Shown piece after piece: positions 26,747 to 27,088 of a stretch of 50,069 nt of DNA; position 1 is the stretch's first letter, and every line of letters begins with the position of its first letter. Under the pieces are notes generated by a model. That model did no database searches. It saw only the letters and a list, made by a program, of their open reading frames with translations, and was not told the origin of the DNA. The DNA is from a virus. Its lineage: Duplodnaviria > Heunggongvirae > Uroviricota > Caudoviricetes. The translations under genes were made by a program, and so were the position numbers. The stretch is from IMG/VR virus record IMGVR_UViG_641522650_000006. One strand, 5' to 3'.

Positions 26747-27088
26747 GTGCCGGGAATGAAAATGAAAAGAAACCTTCCGTTAATTATTTTGTTGTCTTCT
26801 CTGGTTATGGGCTGTACGCAACATAAAACAGATATGCCCCGACAGTTGGTTAAGGCATTACCACAATATCCGGCCTATGCAGCGGCAAATTATATAAAGG
26901 GACGGGTTGATGTGAGGTTTGATATTGGTGCTGATGGTACTGTCACCCGAATTGAGTTTATTCGTTCAGAGCCGCACCATCTGTTTGATGAGCAGGTTGT
27001 AAAGGCGATGGCAAAATGGCGATTTGAGAAGGACAGGCCGTGTAAAGGCGTGAAGAAAACGTTTATCTTTAGTCCTTCCGCACCCTGA
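26747..27088 (+). CDS. lipoprotein with TonB C-terminal-like domain
   Basis: Lipobox LVMGC; GRVDVRFDIGADGTVTRIEFIRSEPHHLFDEQVVKAMAKWRF resembles a TonB-C fold. Confidence 0.45.
   Translation: MPGMKMKRNLPLIILLSSLVMGCTQHKTDMPRQLVKALPQYPAYAAANYIKGRVDVRFDIGADGTVTRIEFIRSEPHHLFDEQVVKAMAKWRFEKDRPCKGVKKTFIFSPSAP

Follow-up and report, generated by a model that had tools for sequence, protein, structure and literature searches.

What is TonB's C-terminal domain doing on a phage lipoprotein that carries none of the rest of TonB? The question is raised by a small gene in a 50,069-nucleotide stretch of caudoviral DNA (IMG/VR record IMGVR_UViG_641522650_000006; hereafter the window), where a lipoprotein is encoded behind the lysis genes of a prophage. 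A sequence-only reading of the window had suggested that such a protein could interfere with the TonB-dependent receptors used by competing phages or colicins. Here, profile searches, structure prediction and comparison of the gene family identify the protein as a member of the TonB_C family that lacks the parts of TonB needed for energy transduction, and lead us to a tentative proposal for its function as a decoy at the outer membrane.

Results

A TonB C-terminal domain carried by a predicted outer-membrane lipoprotein

The protein is a clear member of the TonB_C family. Both Pfam PF03544 (TonB_C; E=9.7e-15, 55.2 bits against a cutoff of 24.6) and TIGR01352 (E=7.7e-15, 55.0 bits against a cutoff of 27.1) match well above threshold, and residues 26-104 align without a gap to residues 153-231 of E. 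coli TonB in the structures 1U07, 2GSK and 2GRX (phmmer, E about 1e-15), with ~36-38% identity to E. coli TonB. An AF2 model built from 16 family members predicts the TonB-C fold with a mean pLDDT of 86.5, rising to >95 over residues 30-100; it replaced an earlier model from 8 close homologues, which was poor (pLDDT 65.7, TM about 0.5). In Foldseek comparisons with 1U07, 2GSK_B and 2GRX_C, the model superposes with an RMSD of 1.0-1.4 Å and a TM(target) of 0.88-0.92, and the TonB chains from BtuB and FhuA complexes are among its best structural matches. The sequence-only reading, which had described a TonB-C-like segment and suggested a domain search and structure prediction, is thus upheld by the profiles, the gap-free alignment and the model.

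The domain has the layout of its TonB counterpart, with a P-x-Y-P motif, a strand-strand-helix-strand core and a beta3 strand. The family-invariant residues P26, P34, Y36, V49, G59, P71, F75, W86 and P93 correspond to TonB P153, P161, Y163, V176, G186, P198, F202, W213 and P220, and F103 (TonB F230) is nearly invariant. Viewed as a set, Y36, P37, F53, F75, W86 and F103, all invariant or nearly so in the family, match TonB Y163, P164, F180, F202, W213 and F230. The protein ends at about TonB residue 235; relative to 1U07, this would presumably remove the last short strand and leave the edge of beta3 open.

The remainder of TonB is missing. Against cutoffs of 265-448, the TonB equivalog models give 49-74 bits, with matches confined to their C-terminal ~80 profile positions. 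As no other part of these full-length models is matched, TonB's membrane anchor, linker and proline-rich spacer are absent, and since the defining features of a TonB energy transducer were tested and are lacking, the protein is not one.

The reading frame that had been noted at 26747-27088 is an intact open reading frame on the plus strand, which encodes 113 residues from the GTG at 26747 and 108 residues from the ATG at 26762. The frame itself stands, whereas its GTG is probably not the true start, because RefSeq and GenBank annotate near-identical copies from the ATG equivalent to 26762 and this ATG is the sole start common to the window copy and a second, 71%-identical E. coli type of the gene. 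A Shine-Dalgarno-like GGGAA motif lies 5 nt 5′ of this ATG.

From the ATG at 26762, the N-terminus reads MKRNLPLIILLSSLVMGC, followed by the mature TQ... sequence. MKRNLPLIILLSSLVMG-C18 fits a PROSITE PS51257-type lipobox pattern, with a basic n-region, a hydrophobic h-region, a lipobox and the cysteine within positions 15-35. The lipobox is kept in both E. coli types and in most of the listed relatives of ~110-130 residues, so that the lipobox signal peptide of the sequence-only reading is confirmed at Cys18 and across the family. In E. coli, an Asp at position +2 leads to inner-membrane retention, and lipoproteins with another +2 residue are sorted to the outer membrane by the Lol system. 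The window protein has Thr at +2, and its relatives have T, S or A there, never Asp, which predicts Lol sorting to the outer membrane. Between the lipobox cysteine and the folded domain, the model is flexible, with a pLDDT that is <50 for residues 19-21 and reaches >95 at about residue 30 and beyond; the TonB alignment begins at P26.

A common and constrained gene family in a phage cargo slot

Database records label the gene as "TonB family protein", "TonB C-terminal domain protein" (phage 21, CPT_21_73) or "partial tonB-like membrane protein". A sensitive nucleotide search found it in 1616 of 5426 complete E. coli genomes (~30%), near full length in 1612. Two types are present. Type A, the type of the window (at least 95% identity), occurs in about 414 E. 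coli genomes, and type B, with ~73% nucleotide and 71% protein identity to the window copy, in about 1201. Between the two types, pS is 0.65, dS about 1.5 and dN/dS 0.12, falling to 0.095 within the domain, and the lipoprotein is therefore under strong purifying selection. An exhaustive profile search recovered further lipobox-plus-TonB_C proteins beyond E. coli, of roughly 107-133 residues and 33-51% identity; a locus search led by the E. coli alignment gave near-identical copies only. The low identity to TonB and the synonymous saturation between the phage types indicate that the lineage is old, and together they rule out a recent capture of host tonB.

The phage copies occupy one slot, between the spanin genes and terminase or cos, and all point in the direction of the late operon. 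This slot holds in phage 21, JLK-2012 and the Stx1a phages, as well as in Klebsiella phage ST13-OXA48phi12.4, whose copy is 41% identical, and a Serratia prophage has the order Mom, lysozyme, lipoprotein gene, TerS and portal. The slot is also kept in most of 40 IMG/VR contigs with recognisable lysis or terminase neighbours, even as at least three different lysis cassettes and terminase types surround the gene. In other prophages, the same site holds ylcI, a DUF1398 gene, small ORFs or nothing, and is thus a variable cargo site. The claim that the gene sits in the bor-type cargo slot of lambdoid phages is borne out by this synteny, and so is its placement between the lysis cassette and cos: the gene follows the lysis cassette and its phage 21 homologue lies between bor and cos, with no cos recognisable in the window. 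As a candidate moron, the gene lies in a slot of variable occupancy behind a conserved block and has a GC content of 44% against 51% for the window; its promoter-like site is at chance level, and no terminator was found.

Outside phages, relatives are single chromosomal genes: Raoultella and Klebsiella have one beside lacZ-lacI, Serratia grimesii near dsbB-nhaB, and Erwinia near araA-araB or panE. Because these relatives stand alone in ordinary chromosomal neighbourhoods, the function of the family is not intrinsically lysis.

Two associations with other genes were seen. In the 3 of 3 elements examined (phage 21, JJ1887 and GF130), the type B copy is accompanied by iss/bor and sitABCD in a phage-21-like, icd-integrated prophage; in the phage 21 record, the locus concerned is 21967-24502. 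SitABCD is a TonB-independent ABC importer of iron and manganese, and one may speculate that it could offset blocked TonB-dependent uptake. Separately, a gene for a DUF1440 (YagU-like) membrane protein lies near the lipoprotein-TonB_C gene in the Klebsiella phage (1277-1903, upstream of the holin) and 400 nt downstream of the gene in the Raoultella chromosomal locus (6738-7301); its proximity in both loci may be a coincidence.

Predicted Fur control of relatives outside E. coli

Upstream regions were scanned with the Fur consensus GATAATGATAATCATTATC, scoring 19 positions. In 8 of 15 genome loci, the relatives have Fur boxes of 15-17/19 directly 5′ of the gene, scores that 0 of 200 shuffles reached in each case. 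Such sites are essentially unique within each 12-kb locus, and only 1 of 278 control upstream regions reaches at least 15. They lie about 20-80 nt upstream of the gene, both in several prophages and on chromosomes of Raoultella, Klebsiella, Serratia and Erwinia. A Fur-like site of 12-16/19 is present in each of the 40 viral loci, where its end is 15-18 nt from the start codon (with scores of 15-16 in 9 loci), and some relatives possess the perfect 7-1-7 Fur box TGATAATtATTATCA. Because canonical Fur boxes lie directly upstream of these relatives, the lipoprotein-TonB_C family is predicted to be iron-regulated outside E. coli, as part of the Fur regulon even inside a phage late region.

The E. 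coli copies differ in this respect, as the best match to the Fur consensus in phage 21 is 11/19. In the window, a perfect 8-1-8 palindrome, AGAATAAGaCTTATTCT, overlaps the -10 element of a candidate promoter and a Fur-like 19-mer, at the place that canonical Fur boxes take in relatives; it was rejected as a conserved operator, since type B has lost the 3′ half of the palindrome and just 13/19 positions agree with the Fur consensus. The TGTnAGAAT core of the -10 element is kept in type B, and the window gene may have its own promoter. Given its co-orientation with the late operon, the gene is probably transcribed at least as part of it.

A conserved RNA-like block upstream of the gene

An unannotated block upstream of the lipoprotein gene is 77-100% identical across copies while adjoining synonymous sites are saturated. 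In complete E. coli genomes, it has 11,163 copies in 4154 of 5426, with up to 11 per genome and 691 on plasmids, of which one examined copy lies beside iss; 398 phage records also contain it, among them 434, 21, mEp460 and 933W-type Stx phages. At every examined locus, the block is unannotated, has the orientation of the late operon and stands just after the spanin or bor genes, before the variable cargo and terminase. It looks like a structured RNA on the strand of the late transcript. Its consensus folds at -39 kcal/mol on the plus strand versus -21 kcal/mol on the minus strand, 96% of the cells in the alignment are paired with many G-C to G-U changes, and one hairpin has been swapped for an unrelated sequence that still pairs; double-sided covariation is sparse. 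The block has no Rfam match at E<=1, and no copy turned up when the Klebsiella, Raoultella and Serratia loci were searched with a covariance model derived from it. A coding function was rejected because of indels of 17 and 1 nt and a candidate start codon that is not conserved, and a role as the private leader of the TonB-C gene because the block is present in thousands of prophages without that gene.

Genomic surroundings in the window

The features of the locus are listed in Table 1. Between ylcI and the terminase large subunit gene, ~10 kb of the window (27500-37500) is taken up by elements of the IS110, IS66 and IS3 families, comprising two identical genes for a 391-residue IS110-family transposase in opposite orientation, two IS66-family elements and one IS3-family element. 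The HNH and small-terminase homologues of related intact prophages are not present in 27500-37500, and because neither is found amid this stretch, the window prophage is probably packaging-defective. Upstream of the lysis cassette, Rfam matches at the gathering threshold lie at 3406-3522, 11477-11662 and 20414-20928 and comprise an ALIL pseudoknot (IS3 frameshift signal), isrK and C4 antisense RNA of the anti-repressor immunity region, STnc100, and three tRNAs (one for Met, two for Arg).

Table 1. Features of the lipoprotein locus, in window coordinates
Feature	Position	Strand	Remarks
Holin	24012-24281		Upstream of the lipoprotein gene
Endolysin	24681-25214		Upstream of the lipoprotein gene
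Rz i-spanin	25696-26169		Upstream of the lipoprotein gene; Rz1 embedded at 25922-26107
80-aa ORF	26175-26417		Between Rz/Rz1 and the lipoprotein gene
RNA-like block, unannotated	26434-26611	+	~178 nt, GC 61%, sharply bounded; 150 nt upstream of the lipoprotein gene
Candidate sigma-70 promoter (weak)	26702-26729	+	-35 ATGACC at 26702-26707, 16-nt spacer, extended -10 TGtTAGAAT at 26721-26729
Palindrome with Fur-like 19-mer	26725-26745		Palindrome at 26725-26741, Fur-like 19-mer at 26727-26745
Lipoprotein CDS, 108 aa	26762-27088	+	Stop codon included; ORF list, RefSeq boundaries, ATG kept in type B
Predicted signal peptide and lipobox, residues 1-18 (L-V-M-G-C18)	26762-26815	+	PS51257-type pattern match in the window protein and most relatives
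Flexible tether, residues 19-25 (TQHKTDM)	26816-26836	+	Lipid anchor to folded domain; AF2 pLDDT, start of TonB alignment
TonB C-terminal domain, residues 26-104 (TonB 153-231)	26837-27073	+	Pfam, NCBIfam, PDB phmmer, AF2, Foldseek
ylcI/DUF3950	27220-27420	-	Downstream of the lipoprotein gene
Terminase large subunit, lambda type	starts 37581		Past ~10 kb of insertion sequences

Discussion

Our analysis leads us to propose, at slightly less than an even chance, that the lipoprotein is an outer-membrane-tethered decoy that binds TonB boxes and dampens the TonB-dependent entry of phages, colicins and microcins. In TonB itself, beta3 is the strand with which the TonB box pairs, and residues around position 160 contact the TonB boxes of BtuB and FecA; TonB-dependent colicins have TonB boxes of their own, and the irreversible adsorption of T1 requires TonB (PMC11658791). 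Exported periplasmic TonB fragments (33-239, 103-239 and 122-239) inhibit the TonB system, which has been ascribed to competition at the transporters (bioRxiv 10.1101/2020.01.05.895219). For the phage protein, lipidation and Lol sorting would leave the domain hanging just beneath the outer membrane, where the TonB boxes of transporters emerge, and its beta3 strand could pair with the boxes of transporters and/or incoming colicins in the way that TonB does. Because the domain cannot be energised by ExbB-ExbD, we propose that it would compete with the real TonB for these boxes. For T1- and phi80-type phages, the expected consequence would be less TonB-dependent irreversible adsorption or DNA entry; group B colicins, catecholate microcins and albomycin-type compounds would be imported less, with broad exclusion or lysogenic conversion as an outcome that would benefit both prophage and host. 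The protein would be made at least with the late operon, and the candidate extended -10 promoter could add expression in the lysogen. In the Klebsiella, Raoultella, Serratia and Erwinia relatives, Fur control would raise expression when the receptors are most abundant.

Several observations weigh against this proposal. Two TonB positions linked to contact with transporters are changed: R166, which we take to be a FhuA-contact residue, is Y39 in the window protein, and Q160 is L33 in type A and Y, H or P in relatives, never Q. Q160L is, at the same time, a classic suppressor allele of TonB-box mutants (PMC11658791), and by analogy a Leu at this position may alter TonB-box binding rather than abolish it. 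The engineered fragments that inhibit TonB are longer than the minimal, 153-235-type domain found here and were overexpressed. In the window, the promoter consensus scan returned 2 sites versus 2.4 expected by chance, no terminator was found after the lipoprotein gene, and the Fur-like site is weak, with 13/19 matches that 10 of 200 shuffles reach. PADLOC has no defence-system model for the lipoprotein, and we found no functional study of it or its family in the literature, an absence that is not proof. Chromosomal single-gene relatives outside prophages complicate a purely inhibitory role. Moreover, since many relatives have Fur boxes, they would be induced alongside the iron-uptake machinery that they would block, which is awkward for a pure inhibitor, as it would starve the cell when iron is scarce. 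A further form of the proposal, which we consider unlikely, is that the family is a natural, iron-regulated "anti-TonB", a mobile lipoprotein that would close all TonB gates from the periplasm at the time when Fur derepression exposes the cell most to phages, colicins and siderophore-mimicking microcins; in the widespread E. coli phage-21-like prophage, where it is paired with iss and sitABCD, the importer would then serve as a side door.

The same Fur boxes invite the opposite view, in which the protein is a Fur-induced positive or homeostatic accessory of iron uptake that the prophage carries as a host-fitness gene, whether as a scaffold for periplasmic binding proteins beneath transporters, by parking on TonB boxes to regulate the allocation of scarce TonB, or by tuning transporter signalling. 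The canonical boxes lie upstream of both chromosomal and phage-borne relatives, the single-gene copies in Raoultella, Klebsiella, Serratia and Erwinia sit among housekeeping genes, and in phage 21 as well as two sampled E. coli prophages type B is accompanied by sitABCD. However, a domain unconnected to ExbB-ExbD has no means of delivering energy, its gene has no conserved partner next to it, the lambdoid copies of E. coli have a weak Fur box or none, and free TonB C-terminal fragments, which provide the sole experimental data, inhibit (bioRxiv 10.1101/2020.01.05.895219). On balance, we regard such a role in iron uptake, the main rival to the decoy, as doubtful. An envelope lipoprotein that re-uses the TonB-C fold, as a stabiliser associated with peptidoglycan or the outer membrane or for serum or stress resistance of the Bor/Iss type, would fit the shared bor/iss slot, the adjoining bor/iss genes in phage 21 and E. 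coli prophages, and the loss of TonB Q160 and R166. We judge it to be quite improbable, given that the family-invariant residues are those conserved in true TonB, including P-x-Y-P and the beta3 aromatic residue, and that the Fur linkage of relatives points to iron or TonB biology.

Annotation by phage orthologous groups suggests yet another identity, since the best PHROG match is phrog_1267, labelled "Rz-like spanin" in the lysis category (E=1.4e-42), and the gene lies directly downstream of the lysis cassette in the same orientation. A lysis accessory or spanin-like protein is nonetheless very improbable: a complete Rz/Rz1 two-component pair is already present upstream, the mature part is predicted to fold as a globular TonB-C domain and lacks a hydrophobic C-terminal segment or the membrane anchor of a u-spanin, and relatives occur in non-phage chromosomal loci with Fur boxes. 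O-spanins, for their part, are short and proline-rich, and are embedded in their i-spanin partner or adjoin it. With the spanin identity rejected on the grounds of Rz/Rz1, the fold and the chromosomal relatives, the phrog_1267 label is most likely a positional mis-annotation. The matched members of phrog_1267 are themselves TonB_C lipoproteins, and the label is likely to spread via phage annotation pipelines. Finally, the gene could be taken for a functionless fragment of a captured tonB, as just the last ~80 TonB residues are matched and some phage records use the wording "partial" or "fragment". We find this scarcely credible because of the strong purifying selection (dN/dS of 0.12 at saturated synonymous divergence) and because 1612 of the 1616 genome copies are near full length; the protein also has its own signal peptide and lipobox, which are kept in relatives from other genera at 33-51% identity.

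If the lipoprotein is a decoy, a broad-spectrum modulator of TonB-dependent entry would be present in ~30% of sequenced E. coli, STEC and ST131-type ExPEC among them, and in many Klebsiella prophages. This would affect the host range of T1-, phi80- and FhuA/FepA-dependent phages in phage therapy, sensitivity to colicins and microcins, and the uptake of siderophore-conjugated ("Trojan horse") antibiotics, for which TonB-dependent transporters are generally regarded as the entry route. It would also provide a natural proof of principle for TonB-box blockade, which is now being pursued with synthetic peptides. If the protein instead aids iron uptake, it would be a new accessory component in a very well studied system.

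Comparison with known systems

The closest point of reference is E. coli TonB 150-239 (PF03544), with which the lipoprotein shares the fold, ~38% ungapped identity, the P-x-Y-P motif, the core aromatic residues and beta3. Unlike TonB, it has no N-terminal transmembrane anchor, proline-rich spacer or 103-150 linker, and hence no coupling to ExbB-ExbD, and its predicted signal would anchor it by lipid to the opposite (outer) membrane. In function, the nearest precedents for the proposed decoy are the engineered, dominant-negative TonB fragments and the phage lipoproteins Llp and Cor. The lipoprotein shares with the engineered periplasmic TonB fragments the state of a motor-less TonB C-terminal part in the periplasm. 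Those fragments, however, were longer, soluble, overexpressed and exported by a foreign signal peptide, whereas the lipoprotein is the product of a natural gene, with a minimal domain and a predicted outer-membrane tether. Among natural proteins, FusB of Pectobacterium and HasB of Serratia have TonB-C domains that diverged toward particular partners, and the FusB C-terminal domain is among the best structural matches of our model; both are full-length, inner-membrane-anchored and energised transducers, unlike the lipoprotein.

Phages provide comparisons of a different kind. The slot between Rz and cos is common to the lipoprotein gene and lambda bor/iss, and in both cases the product is a small outer-membrane lipoprotein (by prediction for the window protein), but bor/iss has an unrelated sequence, and its transcription runs against the late operon, whereas the lipoprotein gene is co-oriented with that operon. 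Cor of phi80, N15 and HK022 is an exclusion lipoprotein that silences FhuA, and cor is found close to the tail-fibre genes, not behind the lysis genes. T5 Llp is likewise a small phage outer-membrane lipoprotein that acts on a TonB-dependent transporter, FhuA, from the periplasmic side and shuts out phages and colicins (bioRxiv 10.64898/2026.03.26.714494). No sequence relation of the window protein to Cor or Llp was detected: a PHROG scan (E<=1) matched only phrog_1267, 34172, 812 and 5155, none of which is an exclusion family. Llp and Cor are receptor-specific, whereas a binder of TonB boxes would, in this hypothetical analogy, be expected to act on many receptors. Although the gene itself is already annotated, a decoy built from the docking domain of the host would extend the phage lipoproteins that act on TonB-dependent receptors.

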